Part shown: positions 7,654 to 30,087 of the stretch, in pieces
How the letters are laid out: each line of letters opens with the position of its first letter
Numbering within the stretch: position 1 is the stretch's first letter
NCBI GenBank assembly: GCA_963712115.1
Contig: CAVQGX010000036.1
Location: 1 to 33,893 of the forward strand
Source: an uncultured delta proteobacterium
Lineage (GTDB): Bacteria; Desulfobacterota; Syntrophobacteria; BM002
Length of the DNA stretch: 33,893 nt
Direction: 5' to 3'
Notes under the pieces: generated by a model
The model's database searches: none
Told to the model about the DNA's origin: nothing
Seen by the model: the letters and a program-made list of their open reading frames with translations, nothing else
Translations under genes and position numbers: made by a program

Positions 7654-7709
7654 ATCTTGTGCCAGATTAAATTGCAGCCGAGTGTGAATTAAGGGATGTA
7701 ATGCACACT
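7654..7709 (+). repeat. B-type palindromic site B1 with partial linker
   Basis: AGTGTGAATTA-AGGGATG-TAATGCACACT (7681-7709); arms 10/11 inverted. Confidence 0.9.
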
Positions 7710-8017
7710 TTTGCCTGTTGTCTGGTCCGAGTCCTAATGAATCATCACGCTTTCCTCTCGAAGCCGTCACATATGCTTATCATATCAATAAATTCTTGAA
7801 TGTTTACATCTTGGCAAGAGACATGAACGTTCCTCTACTGTTGATCAACAACCGTACTCGGTGATACTATCTTCTCAAGCGATACCATGTTGCCTGAGGC
7901 TATCTACAACAATCCACAGGCTGCGTAGGTCTTTAGCCATCTAGAGTTACAGTCTATCTCGCACTAAGTTAAGATTTAAACTCAAGTAGTGTGTTCGGGA
8001 AAAGGAGAAAAGAATCA

Positions 8018-8335
8018 ATGGCGTGGATTTATCTCTTTGTTGCGGGTTTATTCGAAGTAGTTTGGGCAATAGCTATGAAATATTCTGAAGGTTTCACTAA
8101 ACCCTTGTCGAGTGGGATCACGCTGGTGGCCATGTTTATAAGCGTATTTTTCTTGTCTCAAGCATTGAAAATCCTGCCAGTAGGTACAGGATATGCCGTT
8201 TGGACTGGAATTGGAGCGGTTGGCACAGCACTGATGGGTATTTTACTCTTTGGCGAGTCGCGCGAAATAGCTAGAGTTTTATTTATTTTCCTGATTATTA
8301 CAGGAATTGCGGGCCTCAAGCTAACTTCATCTTAG
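8018..8335 (+). CDS. sugE: SMR-family exporter, SugE/Gdx subtype
   Basis: MAWIYLFVAGLFEVVWAIAMKYSEGFT, LPVGTGYAVWTGIGAVG; four TMs; AGGAG before ATG 8018. Confidence 0.88.
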   Translation: MAWIYLFVAGLFEVVWAIAMKYSEGFTKPLSSGITLVAMFISVFFLSQALKILPVGTGYAVWTGIGAVGTALMGILLFGESREIARVLFIFLIITGIAGLKLTSS

Positions 8336-8504
8336 TGAAGAAATTGCGGCCTTAGATATGTCCTTACACGGTCAGATAGGGCAAACAACCTCCCTGTTGT
8401 GATGCCGCTGACGAGATTTAGTAATGGGGCTATTGATCACAATCGTGGAGGGAGGAGTTTGAGATAGTATGGAAGTTTTAAACAACATAATAAAGGAAAG
8501 GTAG

Positions 8505-9644
8505 ATGGATTCCATTGTCGATCCCAAAGATTTTCCTGCTAGCGACAAATGTACATATTTGAATGCCGCTAATGTGGCCTTAATGTACCAAGGCGCTGAA
8601 AAAGCTATCATCGAATGGCAAAAAGACCTTGCTGAAAATGGCAGCATAAACTTTGATGAAAGTGCCGAAGCAACCGTATTCGGTGACTTACATAGTGCCG
8701 CCGCACGTCTTTTTAACGCCCGGCCCGAGGACATTGCAGTAGGCTCCAGCGCAACAGAACTTATCAGTTCATTGGCCTGGGCGGTCGCCCCTGAGTGTAA
8801 GACCAATGTGGTCAGTACGGATATAGTATTTCCTAGTACAGTTTATCCCTGGCTTCGTGTAGCAAGGCATACGAACTGTGAGCTTAGGTTGGCTAAGGGT
8901 CAAAACAGTTATGCCAACCCAGATGACGTGATCCAACTAATCGATAACCTTACCTCTGCAGTGTGCGTTTCGCACGTTGAATACAGTGGTGGACAGCGGT
9001 ATGACCTGCAAAAGATGGCGGATGTGGCGCATGACCATGACGCTCTCCTGGTGGTAGATGCAACTCAATCTGCCGGTGCCGTCCCAATAGATGTACAAGC
9101 ATGTGGTGTGGATGCCTTAGTCACCGGCGGCTACAAGTGGCTTTGCGGACCATTCGGTGCAGCGGTGATGTATCTTGCACCTCATTTACAGAATCAGCTA
9201 GACCCGGGATTAGTAGGATTTCGCAGTCATAAAGACATGTGGGATCTTCAGGCGGACCGAGTTGAGTTCCCGGCAACGGCACAGCGTTTTGAGTACAGTA
9301 CCATGGCTTATGGCTGTGCTATAGGATTGGCGCGTTCAATAGAATACTTGGTGGATGTCGGTGTGGCGCGCATTTTTTCGTACAATATACATTTGGCTAA
9401 TTTGTTGATTGAAGGCTTGGAAAAGCGCAACGTGGAAATTATCTCGCCCCGCAATGAGGCAGAGCAGACCTCCATTGTGGCTGCACGGTTTCCGGGGAAG
9501 GATCCGGCGGAAGTGGCTCGAAGACTTAAGGCGGCTCAAGTTATGGTTTCATCGAGAAAGGATTTTGTCAGGTTTTCTCCCCACCTTTACAATCAGCCGG
9601 CTGATATTCAACAAGCTTTGGACAGAATTGAAGAAATTCCATAA
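8505..9644 (+). CDS. Class V PLP-dependent aminotransferase-fold enzyme (cysteine desulfurase/lyase-like)
   Basis: YLNAA, VDATQSAG, GYKWLCGPFG (PLP lysine), RFSPHLYN. Confidence 0.9.
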   Translation: MDSIVDPKDFPASDKCTYLNAANVALMYQGAEKAIIEWQKDLAENGSINFDESAEATVFGDLHSAAARLFNARPEDIAVGSSATELISSLAWAVAPECKTNVVSTDIVFPSTVYPWLRVARHTNCELRLAKGQNSYANPDDVIQLIDNLTSAVCVSHVEYSGGQRYDLQKMADVAHDHDALLVVDATQSAGAVPIDVQACGVDALVTGGYKWLCGPFGAAVMYLAPHLQNQLDPGLVGFRSHKDMWDLQADRVEFPATAQRFEYSTMAYGCAIGLARSIEYLVDVGVARIFSYNIHLANLLIEGLEKRNVEIISPRNEAEQTSIVAARFPGKDPAEVARRLKAAQVMVSSRKDFVRFSPHLYNQPADIQQALDRIEEIP

Positions 9645-9706
9645 CAGCAAAATATTCTATTCTAAGGTACTACCCCAGCATTTTATGCCGAGTCCTGAGA
9701 AGCAGA

Positions 9707-9735
9707 AGTTTAAATTAAGGGATGTCATCCACACC
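9707..9735 (+). repeat. B-type site B2
   Basis: AGTTTAAATTA-AGGGATG-TCATCCACACC. Confidence 0.8.
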
Positions 9736-9994
9736 TCTCAAGTGACCGAGGTGGCGCTGCATTTCTCATCAAAGTTTTATCTCACCATTGTTGGCCTAAT
9801 GTGCCAGCATCCAGTTTCCCTTTGCCTTGATTACGAGTTATGCTTACTTATTGGGAAGCGGGCTTTTGAGTCAATTTATGCACCCGAACTGACTCTACCT
9901 TACGACTGAGTTCGGCCAACTAATGCCGGCCAGACAACCAGACGAATTGGTTAATACTCTCAATAATTTCATAAGGAAGATCTAGGAGCGCATT

Positions 9995-10981
9995 ATGACA
10001 AATCGCTATGCCAGGATAATCAGCACCGGCCGCTACGTGCCGGAACGTATAATGACCAACGCAGAATTTGAACCGCTCGTCGGGGACGTAGATGGTTGGC
10101 TCAGAGAAAGGGTGGGCATTGTGGAGCGCCATGTAACTGCTCCCGACGAGACCACCAGCGACATGTGTACTGCTGCCGCTCGCCAGGCTTTAGCGCGAGT
10201 TAATCTCCCTCCTACCGATGTCGACCTGATTGTGGTGGGTACTGACACGCCAGACCTCATCAGCCCAGCTACGTCCACTATTGTTCAGTACAAGCTTGGG
10301 GCGGAAAACGCCGCGACTTTTGATGTTAATTGTGCCTGTGCAGCTTGGGTTGCGGGCCTGGACATTGCCGCCAAGCAAATCTCTGCAGATACTGACATCA
10401 ACAAAGTTCTGGTTATTGGCGGCTACAACATGACAAGATTTATTAATTACCATGACAAATATACGTGCACCCTCTTTGGGGATGGAGCTGCTGCGGTAGT
10501 ACTGAGCAGCAGCGACCAACCGGGTTACCTGGCGGCAAAACTGATTGCCCAGGGACAGTATTACAAATCATTCGGGATATACACGGGCGGGGCCGCTTCA
10601 CCTATGAGTGACAACGAGCTCAATCGCCCTGTTATTCAGATTGTGGAAAAATTCCCCGCCACTTTCAACAGCGAAAACTGGCCCCCCCTGACTCGTCAAA
10701 CGGTCGCCAAGGCTGGCTTGGACTCAGTAGATGAGGTGGATTTCTTCCTATTCACTCAGATGAATGTCAACACCATAAGAGATGTGATGCAACGGTTAAA
10801 CCAACCGATTGAAAAGACCCACTGGATAATGGACAAATGGGGCTATACTGGCGCCGCCTGTATTCCAATGGCGCTGGACGATGCCGTGGTTGAGGGTAAA
10901 GGTCCTCAGCCTGGGGATGTGGTTCTCTTTTGTGCGACCGGTATTGGGCTTGCGATGGCGTGTGCTGTATTTAAATGGTAG
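9995..10981 (+). CDS. 3-oxoacyl-ACP synthase III (FabH)-like enzyme with atypical active site
   Basis: TGRYVP, TPD, DVNCAC (catalytic Cys), LFGDGAAAVV; HQAN replaced by TQMN and GNT by GYT. Confidence 0.88.
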   Translation: MTNRYARIISTGRYVPERIMTNAEFEPLVGDVDGWLRERVGIVERHVTAPDETTSDMCTAAARQALARVNLPPTDVDLIVVGTDTPDLISPATSTIVQYKLGAENAATFDVNCACAAWVAGLDIAAKQISADTDINKVLVIGGYNMTRFINYHDKYTCTLFGDGAAAVVLSSSDQPGYLAAKLIAQGQYYKSFGIYTGGAASPMSDNELNRPVIQIVEKFPATFNSENWPPLTRQTVAKAGLDSVDEVDFFLFTQMNVNTIRDVMQRLNQPIEKTHWIMDKWGYTGAACIPMALDDAVVEGKGPQPGDVVLFCATGIGLAMACAVFKW

Positions 10982-11229
10982 GCTGTTCTGGGTTTTTGAA
11001 GACTTAACCTTCCGAACTTAATTAACACACGCGGTAGTAATATCGAAAAGCCCCGGAATTTAGGAAAGTGCCAAATATTTTGAGCCTGGTCTTTAAGCGA
11101 AAACTGTAACTATTTTATATTTATGCTAACTGTTCAATAGACCTGAATATTATACGTATGATCATACCGTATAATCGCCTGACCATTCTCAAGATCAGAA
11201 ATATCTGGAGTCCTTTCTGGTCTCCTCAG

Positions 11230-11290
11230 ACTAAAGATGACATACTTTAATTCACACTTTACCTCTTGAGACCTAGGTACTATATCTTGG
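11230..11290 (+). repeat. A-type site A1 with partial linker
   Basis: ATGA-CATACTT-TAATTCACACT (core 11237-11251), then cctcttgagacctaggtactatatcttgg. Confidence 0.88.
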
Positions 11291-11301
11291 GTAACTGTGT
11301 C

Positions 11302-11390
11302 TCACCGGCTCCGCTTCTTCCTCCTACACTCCCAAGGCGGTATGGGGTTTGGGTCTGACCACAATCCCCGCTTGTCCATCCTGGCTCCTG
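11302..11390 (-). pseudogene. 3' remnant of a thermonuclease (SNase-family) gene
   Basis: Minus strand reads ARMDKRGLWSDPNPIPPWECRRKKRSR-stop, the typical SNase C-terminus; no N-terminal part present. Confidence 0.75.
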
Positions 11391-11404
11391 ACTTCTGGTT
11401 TTTT

Positions 11405-11920
11405 TCAGCTCAACAACCAAAAGATAAATACAATGAAACCGACGGTGCCCGTTAAATAGAGGAAGATTTTGCTGGAGTTGATCTCGTCAGCGTCGTCACT
11501 CATTTCAATAAACATAGCAGTTCGCTCTACGGTTTCAGACTTCTTGAAAGTATGCTCCACTCCCTCCTTGGCTGTATACATATCAAAGTCCACCTGGCGG
11601 GCCAATTCAGCAAATTCGGGTCCATGATATTTTTCTGCTACCTCTGTGAAGGTTTTTGCATCCAGCTTCTCTCCAGTTGGCTTTACCTCTTTTTTCTCTC
11701 TCTCGCCCGGGGTGAGATCCCTGCGGCGGTAGCTTACTTCCACCCTCCGCTTGGTGCCGTCTCTGGATTTGCTCTCCGCAGCCCGCTTGACCTCGAATTC
11801 ATCGGGAATATCTACCTTGAAGTTGCAGTAAAGGCAGACCATAAACTTGTCTTGGAACTTCCCCAGCGTTTTCGCTTCAAGGGGAGCTGAGCATTGCGGA
11901 CATGTTTTTGGAACAGTCAT
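11405..11920 (-). CDS. Hypothetical protein with N-terminal Zn-ribbon and C-terminal TM
   Basis: CPQC...CLYC; hydrophobic C-terminus; GGAG upstream; sigma-54 promoter at 12001-12016. Confidence 0.8.
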   Translation of the reverse strand: MTVPKTCPQCSAPLEAKTLGKFQDKFMVCLYCNFKVDIPDEFEVKRAAESKSRDGTKRRVEVSYRRRDLTPGEREKKEVKPTGEKLDAKTFTEVAEKYHGPEFAELARQVDFDMYTAKEGVEHTFKKSETVERTAMFIEMSDDADEINSSKIFLYLTGTVGFIVFIFWLLS

Positions 11921-12000
11921 GATTACTCTCCACCCAGCCGGGGTGAATGTGGAGCAAGCCCGAGCGTCCTGGGGTGCAGTGAAGGTGTCAGGGCTAAAAG

Positions 12001-12016
12001 AGCAAGAAAAGTGCCA
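12001..12016 (-). promoter_or_regulatory. Sigma-54 promoter
   Basis: Minus strand TGGCAC-TTTTC-TTGCT, matching the -24/-12 consensus. Confidence 0.8.
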
Positions 12017-12088
12017 AATGCCATTGCAGATTTAATATTTTGGATTTGCCCTTCGGGCTCCCACCCTGTTCTAAGCTGGCCCACCCGA

Positions 12089-12190
12089 GATGTGAATTAC
12101 ATACTTTAATCCCCACTTTCCCTCTTGAGACCTAGGTACAATATCTTGTTTTAAGCTGAGAAAATGCGGAGTTTTGGCTCCGCTTTTTTG
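12089..12190 (+). repeat. A-type site A2 with linker and hairpin
   Basis: TGTGAATTA-CATACTT-TAATCCCCACT (core 12096-12110); linker ends in gcggagttttggctccgcttttt. Confidence 0.9.
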
Positions 12191-12191
12191 T

Positions 12192-12207
12192 TGGCATCGG
12201 GTTTGCA
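12192..12207 (+). promoter_or_regulatory. Sigma-54 promoter
   Basis: TGGCAT-CGGGT-TTGCA upstream of the LysM gene. Confidence 0.75.
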
Positions 12208-12254
12208 GTTGTGAAAGTTTTGTTTCGGATTATACTGAGGGGGGAGGGGAAGTT

Positions 12255-12860
12255 GTGAAACCAAGGGACAGAATTGAGACTCTCGAAGCAGATTTTGAGA
12301 TAAATTTTTCCGATAAAGAGGGATATGCAATTCGGAGGAGTAACAAGGGAAATAGGTCCGCAGGGAAACCATCGGGAAAGAGTAGTCTTTCTTTTTTAAT
12401 AGGGGTGGTCATCTTTGGTCTGGTTGTCCTGGTTGCAGTAGTTTTTCACCGCTCTAGTAATATTGACACTGGATATAAGCTGAAATCATTGGAAAGAAGA
12501 ATCAAACGGCTCGAAGAGAGGTTTTATAGACTTGGTTGGACTGAAGCAAATCTGGAGCAGGTCAAGGAGAAGAGTAAGCAGTTTAATTTGTTCAGAGATA
12601 CCATTAAGAAGCCAAAAACGCCGCCCAAGAGCACTACCACTGAGAAGCCGATAACGCCCCCGGAAAGTACTACCGCTCAAACTGCCAAAGAACAAATAGA
12701 GGCTGTTTACCACGAAGTGCTCCCTGGTGAGACACTTTATGGGATAGGTCTTCGCTACGGTATAGCAGTAGCTGAGTTGCTGCGTCTCAATGATCTTGAA
12801 CCTGGAGCAACGATTTATCCCAAGCAGAAAGTTCTAATAATTCCAGCCGGCAATCAGTGA
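12255..12860 (+). CDS. Membrane-anchored LysM domain protein
   Basis: TM, coiled coil, duplicated KPxTPPxSTT linker, C-terminal LysM (YHEVLPGETLYGIGLRYGIAVAELLRLN). GTG 12255 follows GGAGG. Confidence 0.9.
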   Translation: MKPRDRIETLEADFEINFSDKEGYAIRRSNKGNRSAGKPSGKSSLSFLIGVVIFGLVVLVAVVFHRSSNIDTGYKLKSLERRIKRLEERFYRLGWTEANLEQVKEKSKQFNLFRDTIKKPKTPPKSTTTEKPITPPESTTAQTAKEQIEAVYHEVLPGETLYGIGLRYGIAVAELLRLNDLEPGATIYPKQKVLIIPAGNQ

Positions 12861-12960
12861 TGCTCAGAAATTTTTTAGTGTTTCTAGCATATTTTATAAA
12901 ATGAACAAAAACAGTTGAAGTTTCAAGATTTTCCCCACAGCATTCCACTACTTTGGCGGG

Positions 12961-13036
12961 ACTGTGAATTACATACTTTAATTCACACTTTTCCTATCGA
13001 GACTTAGCTACCATATTTTGGGGAAAACTAAGAAAA
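12961..13036 (+). repeat. A-type site A3
   Basis: TGTGAATTA-CATACTT-TAATTCACA with perfect 9-bp arms (core 12968-12982). Confidence 0.9.
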
Positions 13037-13141
13037 GGTATTATCCACGCCCCGATGGTAAGGTTGGCACTCAATATGATGTGTAGATGATGAGAACGCC
13101 TTTTGTGAGGTTGGCACTCCGACCAAGTACAAAGGAGTTTA

Positions 13142-13687
13142 ATGATGAGAAGCAATGTATTTCCGATTTTTCTTATTTTTCCTTTGTTAATGACCTTTCA
13201 ATTTGGATGCTCCAGGAAAACATACCCACCAGAATCAGCTACTCCTACAGCTTGTGCAATTAGAGCTGAAGTAGATGAAAATGGTAACTTTACCGCCATA
13301 AAAACTGAAAATAATGAGTTAGGAACTAGTCTGGATTTAAACATATGGCTTCACAGGAAGGAAGAAAAGTACAAGCTCCAACTAGTGATTATCTACAAAG
13401 GACTAGACTGGCTTTTTGTAAAGCCTGCCGAAACCTTGGTCATGACAGCTGATGACAAAGATATGCGATTGACAAGCTCAGGCAGGATAGAACTTCAAAG
13501 CGTACTTTCTCGTTTGTGGGGCATGGATATGGCAGCTTACGATATTACTCCTGAGCAACTCAAGGAGATAACTTATGCTGAAGAAGTAAAGTGCAAAGTA
13601 AAAAAACGTGAGTATTCTCTTTCAGCGAGTAATTTTGGATGTTTTCGTCGTTTTTATGAAGAACATGTAAAAGACAAAGAATTTTAG
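13142..13687 (+). CDS. Hypothetical lipoprotein
   Basis: AAGGAG RBS; signal peptide ending FQFGC; 181 aa. Confidence 0.8.
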   Translation: MMRSNVFPIFLIFPLLMTFQFGCSRKTYPPESATPTACAIRAEVDENGNFTAIKTENNELGTSLDLNIWLHRKEEKYKLQLVIIYKGLDWLFVKPAETLVMTADDKDMRLTSSGRIELQSVLSRLWGMDMAAYDITPEQLKEITYAEEVKCKVKKREYSLSASNFGCFRRFYEEHVKDKEF

Positions 13688-13803
13688 ACGTATCGGATTG
13701 AGCGGAAATCTCAATAACGAAATAATTTGGTTTGATAAGAGGCTGGATGCCATGTGCGTTTAGCCTCTTTTCTTTGTTGTGGACATTGCCTTGACAGCCT
13801 TCG

Positions 13804-13836
13804 ACATTTTGTGCCAGATTAAATTCCAGCAGAGTG
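13804..13836 (+). repeat. Truncated B-site linker (breaks after AGAGTG)
   Basis: acattttgtgccagattaaattccagcagagtg matches 14718-14751, then diverges exactly where the IS110 inserts in the 18379 copy. Confidence 0.75.
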
Positions 13837-13918
13837 ATCACAGAAAAATCTGAGTTATACTCCATGTTGCAACCTAGTTAGCCTGACCTCTCCCTTAACA
13901 GACATAGGAGGTTTAGAT

Positions 13919-14050
13919 ATGGAACGAGAAACTCGCTTGTCATGCCCTTCAGGGTATGAACTAGCATGCACAAAAGACAGTGACCAAGATAAGTGTTGTT
14001 GTTGCTGCGTAAAGGTTACCTCGCCCATCAGAGAGGCAGCATCTCCGTAA
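13919..14050 (+). CDS. 43-aa Cys-rich peptide (not in ORF track)
   Basis: AGGAGG RBS, MERETRLSCPSGYELACTKDSDQDKCCCCCVKVTSPIREAASP, then a strong terminator. Confidence 0.65.
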   Translation: MERETRLSCPSGYELACTKDSDQDKCCCCCVKVTSPIREAASP

Positions 14051-14071
14051 CACACTTTCTCCGCAATAGAC

Positions 14072-14122
14072 CCCCGCTATTCCATCTGGAGGTACAATTT
14101 CGGAATAGCGGGGTTTTCTTTT
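14072..14122 (+). terminator. Intrinsic terminator
   Basis: CCCCGCTATTCC...GGAATAGCGGGG 12-bp stem plus T-rich tail. Confidence 0.8.
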
Positions 14123-14137
14123 GCCTTTCGCTAGGCC

Positions 14138-14221
14138 TCACTTCCCCCTTCTCTTCCTCCTAAACTCCCAAGGCGGTATGGGATTAGGATCGGCCTACAA
14201 TCCCTGTCTTGCTAGTTTGGC
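14138..14221 (-). pseudogene. Second 3' remnant of a thermonuclease gene
   Basis: Minus strand AKLARQGL*ADPNPIPPWEFRRKRRGK-stop; DNA similar to 11315-11375. Confidence 0.75.
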
Positions 14222-14448
14222 CTAGCAGTTGTCTTCTTGACGGCTGTGGGGTTTCTCGTCCACCAGGAGTAACACTTCTGCCCCTCCGCCATTTTCAACT
14301 GGCCCTCTCCTTCGGTACCCCATAGGTGACATAAGGTGGAAATTCTTTTCTCAACCTTGTAATAACGTTTCCATATAATTTTGGTTTAGTTTTCCTTAAG
14401 GTTTAGTTAACTATCTGAAATATCAAATTATTGCCAAATTGATAATCA

Positions 14449-14464
14449 TGGCATAGCCTTTGCT
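14449..14464 (+). promoter_or_regulatory. Sigma-54 promoter
   Basis: TGGCAT-AGCCT-TTGCT. Confidence 0.8.
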
Positions 14465-14475
14465 ATTATTGTGAT

Positions 14476-14698
14476 AATAGAGTTTGGCGGCTTCTCATGA
14501 GCGAACCTCAATAAATAACAGATACCCTTTTTTGGACCGGTGTGTCGCCTCGCTTAGTCCGAAGCGCCTAAAAGTTCAATAGGGAATAAAAATTTAGGAA
14601 CACGCTCAAAGAAACATGCCAAACTCCACCCTCACCCCCTAACCATTTTAGCACCCCATCGACATGACGCACGCTCGGAAAGGTCGGTGGGGTTTTTT
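14476..14698 (+). ncRNA. Candidate structured sRNA
   Basis: Lies between a sigma-54 promoter and a terminator (14653-14698); long-range pairing GAGTTTGGC/GCCAAACTC and TGAGCG/CGCTCA; no credible ORF seen. Confidence 0.55.
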
Positions 14699-14715
14699 GT
14701 TTCCGTTGACAGAAA

Positions 14716-14776
14716 ACCATATCTTGTGCCAGATTAAATTCCAGGCGAGTGTGAATTAAGGGATGTAATCTTTATT
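14716..14776 (+). repeat. B-type site B4 with partial linker
   Basis: catatcttgtgccagattaaattccaggcg-AGTGTGAATTA-AGGGATG-TAAT (core 14755-14769). Confidence 0.9.
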
Positions 14777-14948
14777 TTCGCAGTGGTCGAGGGTGGGTTT
14801 ACATTTCTCATTATTATTTGCCCTCAGGACGTATCTTGAGCAGTTAAATTCCCCTGCACCCTTCTACCATTACCTACCAGGCATAAACATTGCAGCTTAT
14901 ATTTCTATTCTCTCCGGATATTCGAGGGACTCAGGGGGCGTTTTGAGA

Positions 14949-15530: not shown

Positions 15531-15613
15531 TACTTACACTCACCGGCTACAAGGTGCAGCCAGTCGTTTCTCGATGTCTCACAACACTTTGTTCTAGTGT
15601 CTTTGCAGACTAA

Positions 15614-22718: not shown

Positions 22719-22822
22719 GGGGACGAATCAGAGAGGGCAAGACTGACACCCCGTTTTTTTCCGATCTGATCATGTCTGGCAAATGCCAGGGTTTTGATCA
22801 CAATCCGCAGAAGTCTTCCGAG

Positions 22823-22932
22823 AATGTAGATAACATACTTTAATCCACACTTTTCCTTTTAAGAAACAGCTACCACATTTTGTGCGAGAGTGAAATCCAG
22901 CATAGTGTGAATTAAGGGATGTAATGTACACT
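22823..22932 (+). repeat. Complete short A-linker-B unit
   Basis: A core 22830-22844, B core 22911-22925; 96 bp between outer core ends; lacks the internal hairpin. Confidence 0.92.
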
Positions 22933-23541
22933 TTGGCTGTGCTCGAGGTCAGTTCAGATTACTCACCAATGTCTGCACTCGACACCTTCCCTCTGCAGAA
23001 CGACATAATACCAAAAATCTTGGTCTTTCGAGAAGTTCCTTCAATAATAAATGTAAATTTCAAAAAATCTCAGTGTGGTATAATAACTACCACATCTTAG
23101 TACGCTAACTCTCTAGTGTACCTCAGCAATTGACATTAATTGTTAAGTTAATATCGTTAGCTTTTCGTCTTAACAACATTGTAATATCCCGTAATTAATG
23201 ATGTTGTAACTCCGAATTGTTTTAAAAATACCTCTTCGAGTCTCCAGATTTAATCAACAATGGTGGTTTTATGTATTGACACGTCTTACGATTAGCCTTA
23301 TATTGTAACTAGATCAAATTTTAACTTAAATTACCACTAATTCTGTAGTCATTTTTCTTAGCACTCTGGAGTGAGTCATGTGGTGGGGTATCTAAAAAGT
23401 GATGATATGACGCCTCTGGGGAGGTTATTGTAGCTCATTGGAGGCTCGACACCAAATTTACCACAAAGGGGGGTGATAAAGGGTAATTCATTGCTGTATG
23501 GTGATCTTTAGAAGTTGTGATTGTAAACAAAAAAAACATAA

Positions 23542-23937
23542 ATGGAGAAGAATATGAAAAGAGCGACTATCATTTCTTTTGCTTTGATTCTGGGTTTTTG
23601 TCTGGTAGCAGGTGCTTTTGCTGCAGATAAAGATGCTATTCAGAAACAAGTAGATGAAATTGTTGTATCCATCGATAGCGGAAAAAAAGCTGATGACTTT
23701 AAGAGCGCAGCACAAAATAAGCCCAACTATGTATTTATAATGGAAGAAGGTGGACAGATGTTGGTGCATCCGTCATTAGTTGGGCAAAGCCTTAAGGATA
23801 AAGCAGAGCCTGTTTATAATGAGTGTAGTAAAGCGACTACCGATGGTAGATGGGTTGAATATGAGTGGCAAGGGAAGCAAAAAAACACTTATGTAAGAAA
23901 AACCAAGGACGGTTTGATAGTAGGAAGTGGATACTAA
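23542..23937 (+). CDS. Secreted single Cache-like domain protein
   Basis: Signal peptide (AGAFA); YVFIM...MLVHP.LVG.., G.WVEYEW..K.TYV...VGSGY. Start may be ATG 23554. Confidence 0.8.
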   Translation: MEKNMKRATIISFALILGFCLVAGAFAADKDAIQKQVDEIVVSIDSGKKADDFKSAAQNKPNYVFIMEEGGQMLVHPSLVGQSLKDKAEPVYNECSKATTDGRWVEYEWQGKQKNTYVRKTKDGLIVGSGY

Positions 23938-23992
23938 GAGTAATTGATTTTTGTCTAAGTATCTTGTTTTAAAGGTTTTAAAGAAATCGTGG

Positions 23993-24034
23993 TGTCGCCC
24001 ATAGAAATTATTGTTTTATGGGCGACATTTTTTT
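23993..24034 (+). terminator. Intrinsic terminator
   Basis: TGTCGCCCATA...TATGGGCGACA plus T7. Confidence 0.85.
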
Positions 24035-24108
24035 CATATGGAGCCTCTTTCAAGAACTCAAAACTCCTGAAGATCATCGTCCTCAGATGACTCGAAGGTA
24101 AAGACTGC

Positions 24109-24172
24109 TTCTAACCACTTAATGCAGCGGACGCGGTAAATTGTACCGCAAGATTTCAACCTTCCGTTAGCA
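24109..24172 (+). other. Degenerate attC-like site
   Basis: TTCTAAC...ATGCAGCGGACGCGG-hairpin-CCGC...GTTAGCA; L' box not intact. Confidence 0.4.
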
Positions 24173-24225
24173 TATTAAGTCCGCATCGGTCTCCCGAAAG
24201 TTCACATACCCTAGAAGCCTATTCA

Positions 24226-25701
24226 CTAATGCCTCAAGTCTCTTGATCTATCAGAGTTTATTCCATATTTCTGAAGGATACTCTGACCATTTTGATCTAC
24301 TTTATTCTTTTCCAATACTATTCGATAACCCATTTCGTCCAATATAACGTGGTATTTCCCTCTATAACTTTCAAACGCATTTACTAAATCATTCATGTTG
24401 GCAATTCGTTTACCATTAACATAAGATACAATTTTGTCATGTACGTTATGGTAGCCCACGTTAATCTCGTCAGCAAGAACTTTTGACAAGATAACCATTT
24501 CTCTCTTGTCTTCGGTGGGTTGTCCATAATAGTATTGATTTAACAAATTTTTTGAAGCCTCATGATGCCACTTATCTCCCCACAATTTTAGGAAGTTTAC
24601 CGTCAATGGCTGAAATACCAAGCCCCCCAGAATAAAATATGTGGGGGCCACGTCATATTGTTCATACGGAACTAATTGGAGCGGATTCGAAGGCTTGGAT
24701 AGTTTCGCCCTAAGGGTTATTATTTTATTCTTTCTTAATACATCAAACTCTACTGTATCATTGATATATTTATTTTGAATTAGATAATTAAAAGATGTCC
24801 TTTCCCCCTCCCTAAACTCTATTGTCCCATCGTTTTCGACAGTTTTTCCATCAATTGAAAGAATAATATCTTCTGTTTCAAGTATCCCCTTGGCTGGGGA
24901 ATCGGGATAAATATTGTATACCAACACCCCAGTCTGTTGGGCGGTCATATCATATTTGCGCTTTATGTCAGGATTCTCCATATCTTGCCAGGCTATCCCA
25001 AGATTTGGTATTCCGTCATACTTGCCGTCTCTTATGTCAGTCAAAAAATGGTCAACGATAGGAGTTGGAACCATATAGCCAATATTCTCAGCATCGTTCC
25101 CTGATCTAGACTGAAAGGCTACTCCAACTAGTTTGTCACCCCTGATTACAGGGCCACCACTATTACCAGAGTTAATTGCAGCATCAATTTGGCAAGCTAA
25201 TAAATCGGCCATGCTGTGGGTATATTTACGATTCTCAACTCTAGAAACAACCCCTTCGGTAATGGACAATTTATCGCCACCTTCTGGAAAGCCGTAAACT
25301 GCAACCTTATCCCGAATTTCTGCCAGAGATCCGATGTCGATGGGTTTGACACCAGAGAAGAATGAATCATCATTTACTTTGAGGATAGCAAGGTCACACT
25401 CGTGAGCTACAACTTCTACTTCTGCTGTATACTTCTTCGCCTCTCCTGCTCTCCTCACCTGAATAAATGTCTGATTTGCTACCACGTGGGCATTCGTTAG
25501 GATTCTTTTCCCTCTAATAATACATCCAGAGCCGTTTCGCGAATTTTGCCCCATCTTTTGCCAGGGCTCATAGTAGTCATATTTATTAGTCACAGTGTAT
25601 ATTTTTACCACTGCATCTTTTATATATCTATTTGCCCATGCAGTTGGGGTACTAGCGAAACTTAAGATCATCACCAAAAAAATCATTTTGCTGCATTTCA
25701 T
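24226..25701 (-). CDS. HtrA/Deg-family serine protease with PDZ domains (Deg2/Deg9-like architecture)
   Basis: TNAHVV, CDLA, AINSGNSGGP triad; PDZ; signal peptide; GGAGG RBS. Confidence 0.93.
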   Translation of the reverse strand: MKCSKMIFLVMILSFASTPTAWANRYIKDAVVKIYTVTNKYDYYEPWQKMGQNSRNGSGCIIRGKRILTNAHVVANQTFIQVRRAGEAKKYTAEVEVVAHECDLAILKVNDDSFFSGVKPIDIGSLAEIRDKVAVYGFPEGGDKLSITEGVVSRVENRKYTHSMADLLACQIDAAINSGNSGGPVIRGDKLVGVAFQSRSGNDAENIGYMVPTPIVDHFLTDIRDGKYDGIPNLGIAWQDMENPDIKRKYDMTAQQTGVLVYNIYPDSPAKGILETEDIILSIDGKTVENDGTIEFREGERTSFNYLIQNKYINDTVEFDVLRKNKIITLRAKLSKPSNPLQLVPYEQYDVAPTYFILGGLVFQPLTVNFLKLWGDKWHHEASKNLLNQYYYGQPTEDKREMVILSKVLADEINVGYHNVHDKIVSYVNGKRIANMNDLVNAFESYRGKYHVILDEMGYRIVLEKNKVDQNGQSILQKYGINSDRSRDLRH

Positions 25702-25797
25702 TATCGCCTCCAGTGGGAGGAGTATTTCCTATTGAACAAAGATAGCGTCACTCTTGGCAAAACAGGACTATTGTGATGAAACAACCAAATGAATTTA

Positions 25798-25813
25798 AGC
25801 AAAAGCAATGCCA
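25798..25813 (-). promoter_or_regulatory. Sigma-54 promoter
   Basis: Minus strand TGGCAT-TGCTT-TTGCT upstream of the protease. Confidence 0.8.
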
Positions 25814-25974
25814 AGTTCAACGTTGAGATTCTGCTTTGATATAAGCCTACTTTAAAAAGACCATATATGGTGGGGCAATCTTACCAATTGAGGGATAATC
25901 AATGAGGTTTTCTATGAGGTATGATCTTATCCGAATTTGATCTTTGACCCCTAACTCCGCATCAGTCTTCTGAA

Positions 25975-26141
25975 AGTTCACATTACATACTTTAATGCAC
26001 ACTTCTCCTCTTGAAACCAAGCTACAATATGTAGGTTTAAACTAAGAAAAAGCGGAGTTTTTTGCTCCGCTTTTTTCTTCTCAACACCTTGTGTCTGAAC
26101 AAACCTTAGTGAAGTGTGAATTAAGGGATGTAATACAAAGT
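25975..26141 (+). repeat. Complete A-linker-B unit
   Basis: A core 25982-25996, hairpin gcggagttttttgctccgc, B core 26120-26134; 153 bp. Confidence 0.93.
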
Positions 26142-26336
26142 CTGCTCCTGCCCTTCCATGCTATCATCTACCTATTGCTGCTATCCCTTTTCTTATGGTA
26201 AATTGCCAACTTGGTAGGGTTTTCCACCATGACCCTGCCCTAATCGGCTATGCCCTCGCTGGCCTTCGTTGCCTCGGTCAGTGGGGGCTTTTTTACTTCT
26301 CTGCTGCCTCTGCTCTCAAATGAGACCCTAAACCCA

Positions 26337-26352
26337 TGGCATATTTCCTGCA
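26337..26352 (+). promoter_or_regulatory. Probable sigma-54 promoter
   Basis: TGGCAT-ATTTC-CTGCA. Confidence 0.55.
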
Positions 26353-26398
26353 AACTTAAGCAAGCTAAGAGGAGCACTTTTATACGCGGAGTAACACT

Positions 26399-26815
26399 AT
26401 GGTTGAAAAAGAAAAACGCACACATCATAGAGCCAAGTTTAAATGGCCTGTCTTGGCAAAAGTCGATGGCAAAGTAATAGAAGGAGTAACGAAAGACATT
26501 AGTGCAAGTGGGGCTTATGTGTGTTGTGCCAATCCTCCAAAATTAAACACAGTATTTGATCTGGCCATCAAAGCACCAGAAAAGAAACTGAAGGTTAAAG
26601 CTGAAGTAATCTGGTCTAATATCTACGGACCTGATGACGAGATTAACCCTCGTGGTATGGGGGTTCGTTTCCTGAATATCTCCAGCGATGACAGAAAAGT
26701 CATAGCCAAGGAAATATTGCAACATCTAAAGCCGGACGAGGAGATAGATGGCAATCAGTTGAAGGCACTAAAGACCCTAACCATACACCCAAAAGACATT
26801 GGTCCAAAACACTAG
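26399..26815 (+). CDS. PilZ domain protein
   Basis: KRTHHR, DISASG, GMGVRF. Confidence 0.9.
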   Translation: MVEKEKRTHHRAKFKWPVLAKVDGKVIEGVTKDISASGAYVCCANPPKLNTVFDLAIKAPEKKLKVKAEVIWSNIYGPDDEINPRGMGVRFLNISSDDRKVIAKEILQHLKPDEEIDGNQLKALKTLTIHPKDIGPKH

Positions 26816-26867
26816 ATGGTGCTACAAGAGATTTAAAGCCCCCTTGTGCAACTTGTATGACAGGGGA

Positions 26868-28070
26868 CTAGACAAGCGCCTCCCCGTAAAGGAAGTTGTT
26901 GAGTTTCTTGCTGTCAGAGTCTGTCATACCGAGGAACTTGATACCTAAGAGTGTCGTGTTTTTTTCTATTTCATTGAGCATAGCCCGCCGTACAATACCT
27001 GCACTCCGAATCTTTCCCAGGTCTGATTCAAAATCAATTTCTAAGAGGACTTGGTCATTTAGCTGAAATTCTTCTGGCTCGGCCTTTGGTACTTTTACTA
27101 AAATTCCATTTTTTGAGATGTCAACCGATTCAGCCTTGCAAGATCTGCTCTTTCTTTGATCAGTCGGTGTGGTTTTGGGCATCATAATAATCAATACCGG
27201 AAGCTGCTCATTAAAGCGAGGATCACGCCTTCGTTCCTCCATTCCAATCTCGGACCGTTTTACTTTAATCTTTTTCAGCCGATCAACGTAATGTTTCAAC
27301 AACACATCCTTAACGGCAGGATTCTCCCGTACAAGCTCCTTCATGGAGTCATAACTGAGTTCCATGATCATAGTGGAGTCTATTGCCGCAACGGAGGCTA
27401 TACGAGGTTTACCAGTCAAAAGAGATATCTCTCCGAAAAACTCACTCTTGCTAAGTATATCAAGCTCTAGCTCACTGCCATGATGGTCTCTCTGAAAAAA
27501 CTTAACCCTACCATTTAAAACAACATATATTGATCTGCCTGGGTCTCCTTCCCTTATGATCATCTCTCCGGCTTTAAAACCATGAAGCGTGGCAGCATCC
27601 GTCAGCTTATTACGTTCCACCGTATCTAAAGAAGGGAAAAAAGGTATAGCTGATAGTACATCCTGAAGTCGTTCGGTCCAGAACACTTCTTTTTCTTTCT
27701 CAGCAAGAATATCCAAGTCCGCTGCTGATGCTGATAAGATTTCCACAGTGTTGGTTAATTTATGACTATCCTCGGGAGTTTCTTTCTCGATGAAGCTAAA
27801 CTCAACTTCTCCCAGTTTGAAAGTGTCGTTAGACCTAAGAATAAATTTATCAACTCGCTTGCCACCGATCACAATGCCATTTGCACTTTTTAGGTCCTCA
27901 ACTACCCAGATGTCTCCCTTGAAAGAAACTTTTGCATGATTACGTGACACACTCGGAACCGGAATAGTAATAGTATTGTCATAACCCCGCCCGATCGTTG
28001 TCGGTCCTTGTAATCGATAGACGGTCTTTTTCTGAAATCCAATTTGAAAAGAGAGATAGCAATTTGTCAT
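26868..28070 (-). CDS. FHA - cNMP-binding - PilZ multidomain protein
   Basis: IGRG..N...VSRNHA..DLKSANG; FFGEISLL..KPRIASV; ERRRDPR and DISKNG. Confidence 0.92.
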   Translation of the reverse strand: MTNCYLSFQIGFQKKTVYRLQGPTTIGRGYDNTITIPVPSVSRNHAKVSFKGDIWVVEDLKSANGIVIGGKRVDKFILRSNDTFKLGEVEFSFIEKETPEDSHKLTNTVEILSASAADLDILAEKEKEVFWTERLQDVLSAIPFFPSLDTVERNKLTDAATLHGFKAGEMIIREGDPGRSIYVVLNGRVKFFQRDHHGSELELDILSKSEFFGEISLLTGKPRIASVAAIDSTMIMELSYDSMKELVRENPAVKDVLLKHYVDRLKKIKVKRSEIGMEERRRDPRFNEQLPVLIIMMPKTTPTDQRKSRSCKAESVDISKNGILVKVPKAEPEEFQLNDQVLLEIDFESDLGKIRSAGIVRRAMLNEIEKNTTLLGIKFLGMTDSDSKKLNNFLYGEALV

Positions 28071-28247
28071 GCAGACGTCCCCTAGGACACTTTCAGCAAG
28101 ATATGTAGCTAAGCGACAAATTCGATTGTAGTTTCTATTTAGATGGCGGCAGCATAGCTTCCTAAGAAGTTTCTACCCCAGCAAAGTATAACGTATTCCA
28201 TGCTTTTTTGATTTGTCGCATGATCCTCTCCAGAACTATCCCCAAAA

Positions 28248-28263
28248 AGCAATAAAAGTGCCA
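28248..28263 (-). promoter_or_regulatory. Sigma-54 promoter
   Basis: Minus strand TGGCAC-TTTTA-TTGCT. Confidence 0.8.
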
Positions 28264-28307
28264 ATCTGTAAGTATTAAATGTTCAGCGCAAGGAATCAGG
28301 TAGAAAA

Positions 28308-28473
28308 ACTTTAACTAACATACTTTAATCTCCACTTTTCCTCTTAAGACCAAGGCACAATATCTTGGTTTAAACTAAGAGAATGCGGAGTTTTTGGCTC
28401 CGCTTTTTTCTTCTCCACATCTTGTGCCAGCTTAAAACCAGGCGAGTGTGGATTAAGGGATGTAATGTGAAGT
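28308..28473 (+). repeat. Complete A-linker-B unit
   Basis: A core 28315-28329, B core 28452-28466; 152 bp. Confidence 0.93.
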
Positions 28474-28577
28474 TTCCTAAGGAGTTGGGTAGGGCTTCAA
28501 CTCGATCTTATATGTAATCTGGCAACCCATTCTAATATACCCTTTTCATACCTATAAAACCGCGCGAAGTCAGGTAT

Positions 28578-28593
28578 TGGCATGATATATGCT
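28578..28593 (+). promoter_or_regulatory. Probable sigma-54 promoter
   Basis: TGGCAT-GATAT-ATGCT; argues for a start at ATG 28645. Confidence 0.55.
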
Positions 28594-28644
28594 AAAATAC
28601 GTGACGTGAGAAGAATTGCGCATCATCGTTACCCGGAAAACCAG

Positions 28645-29736
28645 ATGAAAGGTGAAGAAAAAACAAGAAAGCAACTCCTAGAGGAATTGGTTGTATTGCG
28701 TGAACGGGTAACCGAATTCGAGAAATCAAAATTAGAGAGCAAGCGGGCAGTGCAGAAGTTACGGGAGACTCGGGATTACGCTGAGAGCATTGTGGATACT
28801 GTTCGTGAGCCGCTTGTGGTGCTTGATGCGGACCTGAATGTAATCTCGGCCAACCGTTCCTTCTACGAGACCTTCAAAGTGAAACCTGGGGAGACCGAGG
28901 GACAGCTATTATATGACCTGGGCAACCGAGAGTGGAACATCCCCAAGCTGCGAGAACTTCTGGAAGAGATCCTCCCCGCGCAGACAACCTTCGACAACTT
29001 CGAGGTGGAGCACGAATTCAAGACTATCGGGCGACGAGTAATGCACCTGAACGCTCGACGGATATACAGGGAGACCAACGAGACCCATTCGATTCTTCTC
29101 GCCATCGAGGATATGACCGAGCGCAAGCGAGCGGAGAAAGAAATTCATGACTTAGCTTATTACGACGGTGTGACACGTCTACCAAACCGCCAACTGTTTA
29201 GAGAGCATTTGAGCCGCGCGCTGGCTTATGCTGAGCGTCATAAACGTTTGCTGGCGGTACTATTTCTTGATCTCGACCATTTCAAGCAAATCAACGATAC
29301 GCTCGGCCACCATGTGGGTGACTTGCTGCTTCGGTGTGTAGCCGATCGATTGAAAAAAATCCTCCGCAAAAGTGACATCATTGCCCGTCATGAGGCTGAG
29401 GACTCAATTAGCTATGTATCACGTTTTGGTGGCGATGAGTTTGTCTTACTACTCACGGATCTTAAACAGCCTCATGATGCAGGTAACGTGGCACAGCGCG
29501 CCCTCTACGAACTCTCCAAAGCATATGTGCTGGAAAAGCGCGAGATTTTTGTCAGCAGCAGTATTGGAATTAGCTTGTATCCCTCAGACGGGAAGGACGT
29601 TAACACGTTGATTAAAAATGCCGACGCGGCAATGTATCACGCGAAGAACCAGGGGAGAAATAATTTCCAGTTTTATGCTGGCTACATGAACACCACTATT
29701 TCTCGAAGACTTACTCTGGACAGTGTTTTGGGTTAG
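28645..29736 (+). CDS. PAS-GGDEF diguanylate cyclase
   Basis: Coiled coil, PAS, LPNR, DLDHFKQIND.LGH..GD, RFGGDEF, ADAAMY.AK..GRN. Confidence 0.92.
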   Translation: MKGEEKTRKQLLEELVVLRERVTEFEKSKLESKRAVQKLRETRDYAESIVDTVREPLVVLDADLNVISANRSFYETFKVKPGETEGQLLYDLGNREWNIPKLRELLEEILPAQTTFDNFEVEHEFKTIGRRVMHLNARRIYRETNETHSILLAIEDMTERKRAEKEIHDLAYYDGVTRLPNRQLFREHLSRALAYAERHKRLLAVLFLDLDHFKQINDTLGHHVGDLLLRCVADRLKKILRKSDIIARHEAEDSISYVSRFGGDEFVLLLTDLKQPHDAGNVAQRALYELSKAYVLEKREIFVSSSIGISLYPSDGKDVNTLIKNADAAMYHAKNQGRNNFQFYAGYMNTTISRRLTLDSVLG

Positions 29737-29850
29737 GCGCTCGAGCATGCTGAGTTAACGCGTTATTACCAACCACAACTACACATCAACTCTGACAAAA
29801 TAGTCGGCACTGAGGCACTGATACGCTGGCGGCATCCGGAACTGGGATGA
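29737..29850 (+). pseudogene. Truncated EAL-domain remnant
   Basis: In frame after the TAG: ALEHAELTRYYQPQ...IVGTEALIRWRHPELG-stop. Confidence 0.85.
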
Positions 29851-29977
29851 AGCGATCGGTGGTCGGACCACACTAAGTGTTGAACATTAAATAAAATAGC
29901 GAAAGAATTAACCCGAATATTGGCCTTAAAATGGTACTTTGGGGGGCAAAAAAGCCGTTTAAGCAGTGAAAATCCCG

Positions 29978-30087
29978 ATTGTGGATTACATACTTTAATC
30001 TAAACTTAACCTCCTGATATCCAGCTACCATATGTAGCCCCGATATTTCATGAATCACCTGCTGCGGGGCTTCGGCTCCGCTTTTTT
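29978..30087 (+). repeat. A-type site A8 with variant linker (right end of array)
   Basis: TGTGGATTA-CATACTT-TAATCTAAACT (core 29985-29999); hairpin gcggggcttcggctccgctttttt. Confidence 0.88.

Follow-up and report, generated by a model that had tools for sequence, protein, structure and literature searches.

The window analysed here is one entire contig (C36, 33,893 bp) from the assembly of an uncultured delta proteobacterium, and it carries a 22-kb array of unrelated genes separated by short palindromic sites of two classes, here called A and B, which we discuss as putative core sites of a tyrosine recombinase. The assembly (G000; 4.9 Mb in 70 contigs) appears to be of the metagenome-bin kind, with a completeness of 94.4% and a contamination of 5.99%. 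Throughout, G000 denotes this genome, other G numbers its relatives, C a contig and L a metagenome locus. The array lies between housekeeping genes, with those for a Kef-type exchanger, Slp and an esterase to its left and pdxS/pdxT to its right, and its cargo is a mixture of signalling, envelope and other genes. An initial annotation had described 17 intergenic lox-like sites with one or two genes in almost every interval. All 17 sites are present, although each core begins 4 bp further right than had been stated; one or two open reading frames (ORFs) occupy 13 of the 16 inter-site intervals, whereas the other three are empty A-B doublets (81, 138 and 137 bp).

Gene modules and palindromic sites in the window

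Each site consists of an 11-bp arm, a 7-bp core and an inverted 11-bp arm, 29 bp in total, with the arm consensus AGTGTGAATTA-N7-TAATTCACACT and inner arm bases ATTA/TAAT. The core is asymmetric and never other than 7 bp long. A cores (CATACTT) start at 11241, 12100, 12972, 17479, 22834, 25986, 28319 and 29989, and B cores (AGGGATG) at 7692, 9718, 14759, 15625, 19675, 20602, 22915, 26124 and 28456. A combined score for arms and core, at a threshold of at least 19, returns precisely these 17 in the 33.9-kb window and no others. Orientation is identical for all of them, and the earlier description of spacers that are invariant per class and lie in one orientation while the arms drift holds good. 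CATACTT occurs 12 times in the window against 3.97 expected, a count reached in 0 of 100 shuffles; AGGGATG occurs 10 times against 4.62 expected, which 3 of 100 shuffles reached, so that this 7-mer is not significant by itself. On the forward strand, eight of the nine copies of CATACTT are sites, and the copy at 25017, like three on the reverse strand, is a chance occurrence without arms; arms are present at all nine forward copies of AGGGATG, the single reverse-strand copy being a chance match. It is therefore the position of the cores between arms, and not the 7-mer counts alone, that makes the sites real. On sequence grounds, A and B conform to the simple core-site layout of tyrosine recombinases (lox/FRT/dif type), with inverted 11-bp arms around an asymmetric 7-bp spacer.

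The two site classes of the initial annotation do have distinct cores but are not unrelated, being inverted variants of one family with flanks of ~45 bp. The reverse complement of AGGGATG, CATCCCT, agrees with CATACTT at 5 of 7 positions, and the likeness spans ~60 bp. Conservation is strong on one side of every site, on the right in A and on the left in B, and continues there into ~45 bp of flank; the arm on the opposite side is only moderately conserved and in several sites, e.g. 11241, 17479 and 28319, is weak. The flank of a single A site and that of a single B site have 24 bp in common, which form the centre of the 82-bp A-B doublet. This doublet is a long imperfect palindrome, and the 138-bp doublet is the same short form with a terminator-like hairpin inserted at its centre. 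The arm variants GTGTGA and GTTTAG combine freely across left and right arms, as would be expected if the arms were protein-binding half-sites reshuffled at the core. Within a site the arms are often poorly complementary (5-8 of 11), without covariation, and the outer arms of doublets are likewise unpaired, which argues against selection for a hairpin and fits arms that act as protein-binding half-sites.

The features of the array are given below. Three of them go beyond the earlier list: a degenerate A site at ~18272, a truncated B flank ending at 13836, and an IS110-family element in the B site with its core at 19675 (B19675).

7681-7709 (+): B site, core AGGGATG at 7692-7698; left flank conserved
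7991-8335 (+): cargo ORF, small multidrug resistance family (PF00893)
8505-9644 (+): cargo ORF, class V aminotransferase (PF00266)
9707-9735 (+): B site, core at 9718-9724
9995-10981 (+): cargo ORF, FabH-like ketoacyl-ACP synthase III (PF08545/PF08541); recurs in G002 and G011, starting at a B site
11230-11258 (+): A site with weak left arm, core CATACTT at 11241-11247
11405-11920 (-): cargo ORF without Pfam match, antisense to the array
12089-12117 (+): A site, core at 12100-12106
12174-12860 (+): cargo ORF, LysM domain (PF01476); its 3' end and the A site are 97% identical in G005:C548, identity stopping past the core
12961-12989 (+): A site, core at 12972-12978; chimeric junction with G000:C34 and G000:C3:111652
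13142-13687 (+): cargo ORF without Pfam match
13790-13836 (+): truncated left flank of a B site, core lost; the break falls at the arm position that the IS110 insertion uses
14748-14776 (+): B site, core at 14759-14765
14793-15530 (+): cargo ORF, FHA domain (PF00498)
15614-15642 (+): B site, perfect palindrome with variant arms AGTTTAGATTA/TAATCTAAACT, core at 15625-15631
15711-17348 (+): cargo ORF, caspase domain and TPR (PF00656)
17468-17496 (+): A site with weak left arm, core at 17479-17485
17829-18236 (+): cargo ORF without Pfam match
18260-18379 (+): degenerate A site, interior of a long-form doublet (terminator hairpin) and left flank of B as far as the point of IS insertion
18380-19664 (+): IS110-family element in the left arm of B19675 (PF01548/PF02371); transposase split into overlapping ORFs, 18465-18659 and 18626-19480
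19665-19692 (+): remainder of the B site, core at 19675-19681
19857-20489 (+): cargo ORF, NlpC/P60 (PF00877)
20591-20619 (+): B site, core at 20602-20608
20784-22718 (+): cargo ORF, nucleotide cyclase and TPR (PF00211 and TPR families); paralogous modules in G000:C42 and C31
22823-22932 (+): short A-B doublet, A core at 22834, B core at 22915; 81 bp core to core
23542-23937 (+): cargo ORF, Cache domain
24226-25701 (-): cargo ORF, trypsin-like protease with PDZ domains, antisense
25975-26141 (+): long A-B doublet with internal terminator-like hairpin, A core at 25986, B core at 26124; 138 bp
26399-26815 (+): cargo ORF, PilZ (PF07238)
26868-28070 (-): cargo ORF, FHA, cNMP-binding and PilZ, antisense
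28308-28473 (+): long A-B doublet, A core at 28319, B core at 28456; 137 bp
28582-29736 (+): cargo ORF, PAS and GGDEF (PF00990)
29978-30006 (+): A site, the final one of the array, core at 29989-29995

Two stretches of the array have close copies elsewhere in G000: 7654-9663 is found on C13 at 93%, and 23455-26018 on C54 at 97%, the latter copy ending at the A site. The IS110-family element is present in four copies (the window, C41, C42 and C48), each of which sits in a site arm at one and the same position (AGTG / IS / GTGT.AATTA).

Other repeats lie outside the array. Downstream of the Slp gene lies a unit of ~196 bp (5236-5432) that is abundant in the genus: copies at 78-90% identity number more than 100 across its 18 genomes, many of them in G000. 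This repeat or small-RNA-like element has no relation to the A/B sites. The array is edged on both sides (~6650-6860 and ~30150-30420) by the same kind of low-complexity repeat, CCGACCTCCGACC followed by (A)ATGAC-N units, in direct orientation; in four sediment metagenomes contig depth is much the highest at the copy at ~30150-30420, where loose ends are many. To the left of the first B site is a small ORF of the CBM48/AMPK carbohydrate-binding type (7090-7377), which belongs to a multi-copy family in the genus. An ORF of this type is flanked by two B sites in G005:C183, which suggests that the window array may once have begun further left.

Homology breakpoints and genome-wide distribution

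Comparison of sites with one another located the points at which homology ends. The 500 bp on either side of all 131 sites of G000 (a looser list than the strict scan described below) were cut out and compared, and 17 in-register one-sided pairs were aligned. Most of these are 96-100% identical on the matching side, and in the clean cases (97-100%) identity reaches the 7-bp core and then ends, on the one side or the other. In apparent recombinant junctions, three-way chimeras included, the switch of parent falls within -4 to +11 of the core start. One case is the A site on C4: its left side follows C2 through CATACTT and diverges at the next base, while its right side follows C3:106035 from 2-4 bp before the core, the left of the latter being unrelated. 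C4 thus reads as a chimera joined within the core. Further three-way A chimeras are formed by C39, C3:123618 and C13, and by C3:111652, C34 and the window site at 12972. Among B sites, the pairs C3:107327/C4, C29/C3 and C32/C53 are the same through the core plus TAAT and unrelated beyond, and in C18/C46, C3:121412/127239 and C42/C53 identity begins only at the left arm. Whole modules recur as well, since one of 2.2 kb, running from a B core at its left end to an A core at its right, is found in three contexts at 98-99% identity. One copy of this B...A module, which recurs on C3, contains an IS630-family element (G000:C39:7466-8582; 1.1 kb, inverted ends, TA at both junctions).

Breaks of this kind also cross species boundaries. 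On 12 stretches of G005 and G009, 33 sites were found, with two one-sided matches to sites of G000: G005:C548 equals the window A site at 12972 on the left up to the core, at 97%, and G005:C35 is 91% identical to C3:111734, beginning 4 bp ahead of the core. The initial annotation had proposed to look for cargo that differs with breakpoints inside the 7-bp spacers, and the copies do differ in this way, with breaks that map to the cores. Homologous recombination between repeats of 60-100 bp would scatter breaks over the whole element, so that their confinement to the core speaks against it. Likewise, insertion of a MITE (a miniature inverted-repeat transposable element) would leave both flanks homologous and does not account for one-sided homology. 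The breakpoint pattern fits conservative site-specific exchange at the cores, to judge from these alignments.

The sites are far from being confined to one array, which the initial annotation had treated as the unit. G000 has 131 of them (85 B and 46 A) on 29 of its 70 contigs. The strict scan, based on matching arms, gave 115 sites, of which 71 have a B core, 32 an A core and 12 another spacer, several of these one mismatch off. A few sites of G000 have hybrid cores intermediate between A and inverted B (CATCCTT/AAGGATG, CATCACT and AGGAATG), the outcome that rare A-by-B exchange or mutation would give. Nearly half of the sites (62 of 131) are on the 35 contigs of no more than 35 kb and many are close to contig ends, so the sites evidently break assembly. 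Of 94 pairs of neighbouring sites within 8 kb, 92 have a common orientation. Most intervals measure 0.5-3 kb. By type there are 36 B-B, 25 B-A, 23 A-B and 8 A-A, and the intervals contain 108 ORFs of at least 90 amino acids in sense relative to the sites versus 18 in antisense. In the window, sites adjoining antisense cargo genes are not flipped, and two large contigs have arrays of opposing polarity at either end; together these observations make polarity a property of the array, not of the gene or replichore. The genes between the inverted site pairs, on C28 and C60, encode no enzyme of interest. G000 contains 14 doublets, of 81-82 or 137-139 bp. Scattered copies with target-site duplications had been named beforehand as the mark of a plain MITE; the scatter is seen, but the duplications are absent, with no direct repeats around any of the 14 doublets. 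An empty palindrome, allowing up to 3 mismatches, was not found anywhere in the genome.

The scan was extended to 17 other genomes of the genus, one of the sister genus and 22 other relatives. A 15-nt B pattern occurs in 16 of the 17, in the sister genus (1 of 1) and in 0 of the 22, and a reversed control gave 0 everywhere. By this measure the A/B sites are restricted to two sister genera. In IMG/VR, exact 16-17-nt A and B patterns match 8 and 32 contigs, once each and none with arms, and are taken as chance matches. G002, G011 and G013 are nominally single-contig and in fact N-joined scaffolds, in which chromosome-wide site spacing is unreadable. At the window locus, G012, G016 and G009 have different content and no sites between the flanking genes, and in G007 three B sites lie on the far side of pdxST; comparison of cargo at the same locus is impossible because these relatives lack the array there. 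The search for sequencing data on the window pointed to 24 metagenomes, all from marine sediment or estuary and all available as assembled contigs.

A candidate recombinase and the rival explanations

We put at roughly 60% the probability that A and B serve conservative site-specific recombination as core sites of the simple tyrosine-recombinase kind. In such a mechanism, each 11-bp arm would bind one recombinase monomer, a homo-oligomeric tyrosine recombinase would occupy both arms, and strands would be exchanged across the asymmetric 7-bp overlap. The overlaps of A and B differ at 2 of 7 positions, so that A x A and B x B would be expected to recombine and A x B would not. Because the sites are co-oriented, exchange between like sites would excise, integrate or swap DNA without inversion. 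A double exchange, one at B and one at A, would transfer a B...A or A...B module between arrays in the manner of recombinase-mediated cassette exchange, and over time many chromosomal loci would thereby come to carry co-oriented arrays whose modules hold one or two genes.

A tyrosine recombinase gene does occur near such sites, where the initial annotation had proposed to look for one; it is bracketed by A and B in relatives and limited to the site-bearing genera. Among 12 tyrosine-recombinase matches in G000 the standout is a protein of 278 amino acids (G000:C3:1094-1927). Its catalytic set (R..HxxR..H..Y) is intact, with residues invariant in 8 of 8 aligned homologues, and together with a predicted two-domain fold this places it in the tyrosine recombinase superfamily. 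The best NCBIfam model is that of archaeal XerA (NF040815), at 119 bits (115 for the G006 copy) against a cut-off of 220; the score is far under this cut-off and the protein is not a XerA orthologue. Other models score lower, with ~57 bits for XerC and XerD, 39 bits for IntI and 72 bits for PF00589. XerA is also the nearest solved structure (4a8e, 5hxy), both by sequence and by predicted fold, and the fold model (mean pLDDT 70) also matches IntI, Cre and XerH. At E<=1e-25 the candidate occurs in its own genome, in 6 of the 17 other genomes of the genus and in the sister genus (1 of 1), and in 0 of the 22 other relatives.

The surroundings of the gene show a recurrent arrangement. The gene in G006:C123 has a B core 199 bp upstream of its start and an A core 77 bp past its stop, and that in G005:C209 has a B core 193 bp upstream, the contig ending within the downstream site. 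A downstream A site is found at the gene in G005:C536 and in metagenome locus L102 (91% identity), and an upstream B site in L103 (80% identity). Two members of a subfamily at 51% (G011 and L120) have an A site 207-210 bp downstream. In every case the gene is antisense to the sites, unlike the mostly sense cargo ORFs. Near-identical arms suit a single recombinase better than an XerC/XerD pair. We regard this XerA-like protein tentatively, at a little under even odds, as the enzyme that acts on the A/B sites.

More distant homologues were surveyed in metagenomes. Palindromes beside 80 of them are mostly GC-rich, terminator-like hairpins and not sites, and strong inverted repeats surround the gene in 3 of 65 loci but in none of the 65 in either of two controls. 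In L130 (1-1163) a homologue at 54% lies between perfect inverted repeats (an exact block of 32 bp, ~45 bp on the printout), forming a unit of ~1.16 kb. L174, a contig of 5057 bp with a homologue of the candidate, has the same 123 bp at both ends and may be a circular molecule of ~4.9 kb. A phage-type integrase gene also lies beside arrays, on C39 at 490 bp from the last B site and as a pseudogene on C11; it was rejected as the enzyme, since no more than 4 of the genus's 18 genomes have it and its relatives elsewhere are distant.

Several observations weigh against site-specific exchange at A and B, or against the candidate as its agent. Not every breakpoint lies at a site: in older duplicates (86-93%) the 3' boundary falls just past the stop codon or where the conserved flank ends and not at the next core, C34 and the window show a second break ~60 bp inside the element, near the doublet centre, and a 3.2-kb block of G000:C27 (three genes, two sites) that is absent from G012 and G007 has outer ends that are not at A/B sites. 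Many sites have one weak arm. Given the bin-like nature of G000, some 'duplicates' may be strain variants rather than copies in one cell; exchange at cores would then still hold, though not within one genome. Assembled metagenome contigs do not allow an excision circle or an alternative junction to be demonstrated. Four of the 24 metagenomes were compared with window positions 10500-30499 and gave many joints at sites, with shorter sides of 20-32 nt at a likeness of 90; such joints can come from repeats or other organisms and speak neither for nor against circles. The candidate itself was found in only 8 of 19 site-bearing genomes and not in the assemblies G007, G008, G009, G014 and G015, which are 92-96% complete; the sites around its gene are degenerate in G000 and likewise in G018 and G012. 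Since its wider family (537 metagenome relatives at ~50% identity) is mostly without such sites, it may be merely cassette cargo.

Palindromes of the REP/BIME/REPIN kind share much with these sites. A and B would then be two orientation-specific types, like Y and Z of the E. coli BIME. An HUH (RAYT-type) enzyme that works on hairpins of single-stranded DNA with a conserved loop of 7 nt would have spread them, or they would be retained for a role in structure or at the RNA level, and the rearrangements would follow as a side effect. This description suits the short, imperfect intergenic palindromes, more than 100 in number, that occur as singles and as A-B doublets of alternating orientation. 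Doublets fold as long hairpins (z = -7.2 for the 138-bp form, mostly through its internal terminator, and -1.2 for the short form), the loop is invariant while the stem drifts, as at rolling-circle origins, and a nick in the loop would also put breakpoints at the core. The IS110-family element, moreover, targets the site arm, and the available parts of two accounts describe IS110 elements that target REPs (PMC1525189, PMC11208160). The explanation is nevertheless unlikely, because the arms pair too poorly, orientation is strictly shared and independent of the direction of adjacent genes, an Rfam search of the window gave zero matches, and the gene bracketed by sites encodes a tyrosine recombinase and not an HUH enzyme. 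Y1/HUH transposases were rejected for want of sites near them, no A/B-like site lying within 1.5 kb of any of the four Y1-transposase (PF01797) genes of the genome. We consider improbable a transposon or MITE with terminal inverted repeats, in which the unit would be A...B with inverted ends of ~55 bp, the autonomous form A - recombinase - B (~1.07 kb), the 82- and 138-bp doublets its miniatures and A-gene-B its cargo form, with arrays built by nested or adjacent insertion and single sites left as one-ended remnants. It would explain why A resembles the reverse complement of B over ~60 bp, why the recombinase lies between A and B in G006:C123 and G005:C209, and why the flanks of single sites overlap at the doublet centre, the long doublet being the short one plus a central terminator; the order of sites in the window is largely readable as nested brackets, and the inverted repeats of L130 and of the few loci like it, absent from both controls, point the same way. 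It is at odds, however, with the lack of target-site duplications and of an empty target, and with the excess of B over A sites and of B-B intervals, which would turn 'remnants' into the majority. B...A modules recur as readily as A...B units, the arms outside the unit are themselves conserved half-sites, and the lone presence/absence block, on C27, is not bounded by sites.

The enzymes of chromosome dimer resolution offer another route. XerC and XerD genes are general in bacteria, and genes resembling both are present here, on C30 and C62. The A/B modules could be a counterpart of the Acinetobacter pdif modules, with sites that hijack these enzymes and no dedicated recombinase, which would account for sites in genomes where the candidate was not found. 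Modules between quasi-inverted sites in varied contexts are as described for pdif in the part of the account available (PMC6449649), and the variant arm TAATCTAAACT agrees with the XerD arm of the genus dif at 9 of 11 bases. This genus dif, TCTGATAA-TGTATA-TTATGTAAACT, is exact and single-copy in 15 of 18 genomes (in G000 on C43), and it differs from A/B in its 6-bp centre, its two unlike arms and its inner bases, ATAA/TTAT against ATTA/TAAT. As palindromic arms also suit a single recombinase better than a heterodimer, Xer dependence appears distinctly improbable. A second dif-like site with the same arms and another 6-bp centre (TTAATC) occurs in G000 (C49:23175-23199), G002 and G016 and may be a Xer-exploiting element. 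Non-canonical attC sites, in which the A-B doublet would fold single-stranded and be recombined by the genome's own IntI, are highly improbable and poorly supported. The IntI is genuine (487 bits; cut-off 265), the folded doublet gives a pseudo-duplex of arm, mismatched core and arm followed by a variable tip, and the arrays look like cassette arrays. Yet the intI gene has canonical attC sites of its own (...TAAC...GTTA..., ~115 bp) that are unlike A/B, which lack the AAC/GTT triplets; the outer doublet arms are non-complementary, and the majority of sites are single and not doublet. IntI is present in only 4 of the genus's 18 genomes and was not found in the one genome of the sister genus, yet it occurs in 11 of the 22 relatives without A/B sites, and it was rejected as the enzyme on this mismatch of both site sequence and distribution.

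Relation to known systems and biological meaning

Within the terms tried, no account of the A/B site family was found in the open-access library searched. The system consists of gene modules bounded by putative tyrosine-recombinase core sites, and it belongs to neither the attC, the dif/pdif nor the RAYT-linked REP group, because the defining sequence tests of each failed. That the sites match neither attC nor dif, as first proposed, is confirmed by comparison with the genome's own attC and the genus dif; the broader proposal of an integron-like or pdif-like capture platform receives partial support.

The pdif modules of Acinetobacter are bounded by oppositely oriented Xer sites, occur in different contexts and move by a mechanism that the available part of the account leaves open (PMC6449649). 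The likeness to that description is considerable: one- or two-gene modules of varied content lie between short tyrosine-recombinase core sites, successive sites alternate in orientation, A...B and B...A modules recur with different flanks, and most modules are without an internal recombinase gene (PMC6449649). A pdif site, of 28 bp, has a variable centre of 6 bp and distinct arms for XerC and XerD, whereas the A/B centre is 7 bp, invariant and of two classes, between arms of one sequence inverted. The A/B sites are, in addition, unlike the host dif, have a conserved flank of ~45 bp, form chromosomal arrays at many loci and have a dedicated XerA-like candidate enzyme.

With integrons the arrays share their length, their co-orientation and their mostly co-directional, unrelated one-gene cassettes, as well as a recombinase gene (here the candidate) antisense to the cassettes and repeats that fragment short-read assemblies. 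They differ in that A/B are 29-bp core sites of the double-strand type, whereas attC sites are 60-140 bp, folded and marked by AAC/GTT boxes, and in that many arrays take the place of one platform beside an integrase; no attI or Pc was identified here. The real integron of G000 is separate from the A/B arrays. It lies at C27:1-3300 and is canonical, with intI diverging from at least four cassettes with ~115-bp attC sites and an array that runs off the contig end.

The likeness to REP/BIME/REPIN, as far as the available parts of two sources go, is that of more than 100 intergenic imperfect palindromes of two types that alternate into doublets and are targeted by IS110-family elements (PMC2817692, PMC1525189). 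The A/B sites, in contrast, are without RAYT association, have AT-rich arms and an invariant centre, separate genes in co-oriented arrays and show homology breaks at the palindrome centre. Another comparison is with the neisserial NIME (dRS3/RS), where the phage enzyme that integrates into dRS3 is reportedly of the IS110/Piv type. These too are arrays of short palindromic repeats with variable segments between them, and a phage-encoded transposase/recombinase integrates into the repeat, according to the available part of the account (PMC1797815). The dRS3 repeat is 20 bp with a variable centre and flanks non-coding segments of 50-150 bp, whereas A/B have an invariant centre and flank gene segments.

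Cre/lox and FLP/FRT sites have inverted arms around an asymmetric spacer of 7-8 bp that must match between partners, and two non-cross-reacting spacers let a cassette swap between loci. A/B follow the same plan, and Cre-lox structures are among the fold matches of the candidate. Those systems, however, come from a phage or plasmid with a single natural site, are put to engineered use and have arms of 13 bp, whereas A/B are two natural classes with 11-bp arms and more than 100 chromosomal copies. Archaeal XerA acts alone on a near-palindromic site and is the best family and structure match of the candidate; here the host is bacterial and the sites are multi-copy with a 7-bp centre, in place of one dif with a 6-bp centre per chromosome.

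Taken together with the candidate enzyme, conservative exchange at A and B would amount to a gene-cassette platform of independent origin, the third beside integrons and Xer/pdif, with one XerA-like recombinase, more than 100 sites of 29 bp, two non-cross-reacting overlap classes and genome-wide, non-inverting exchange of modules. This fuller proposal is possible, if somewhat doubtful. Were it true, gene-cassette capture by short sites would not be confined to integrons and the pdif modules of Acinetobacter, having arisen again with the simplest kind of site, and nature would provide a case of two heterospecific spacers that move modules without inversion. Such a system would also be a test bed for the unsolved movement of modules flanked by inverted Xer-type sites, and it might furnish a compact pair of recombinase and site, with built-in orthogonal spacers, for genome engineering. 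The sites explain the poor assembly of these genomes, and integron-finding software misses such arrays. For the organisms themselves, uncultured sediment bacteria, the system would organise ~140 kb of accessory genes per genome, mostly for signalling, the cell envelope and proteases.

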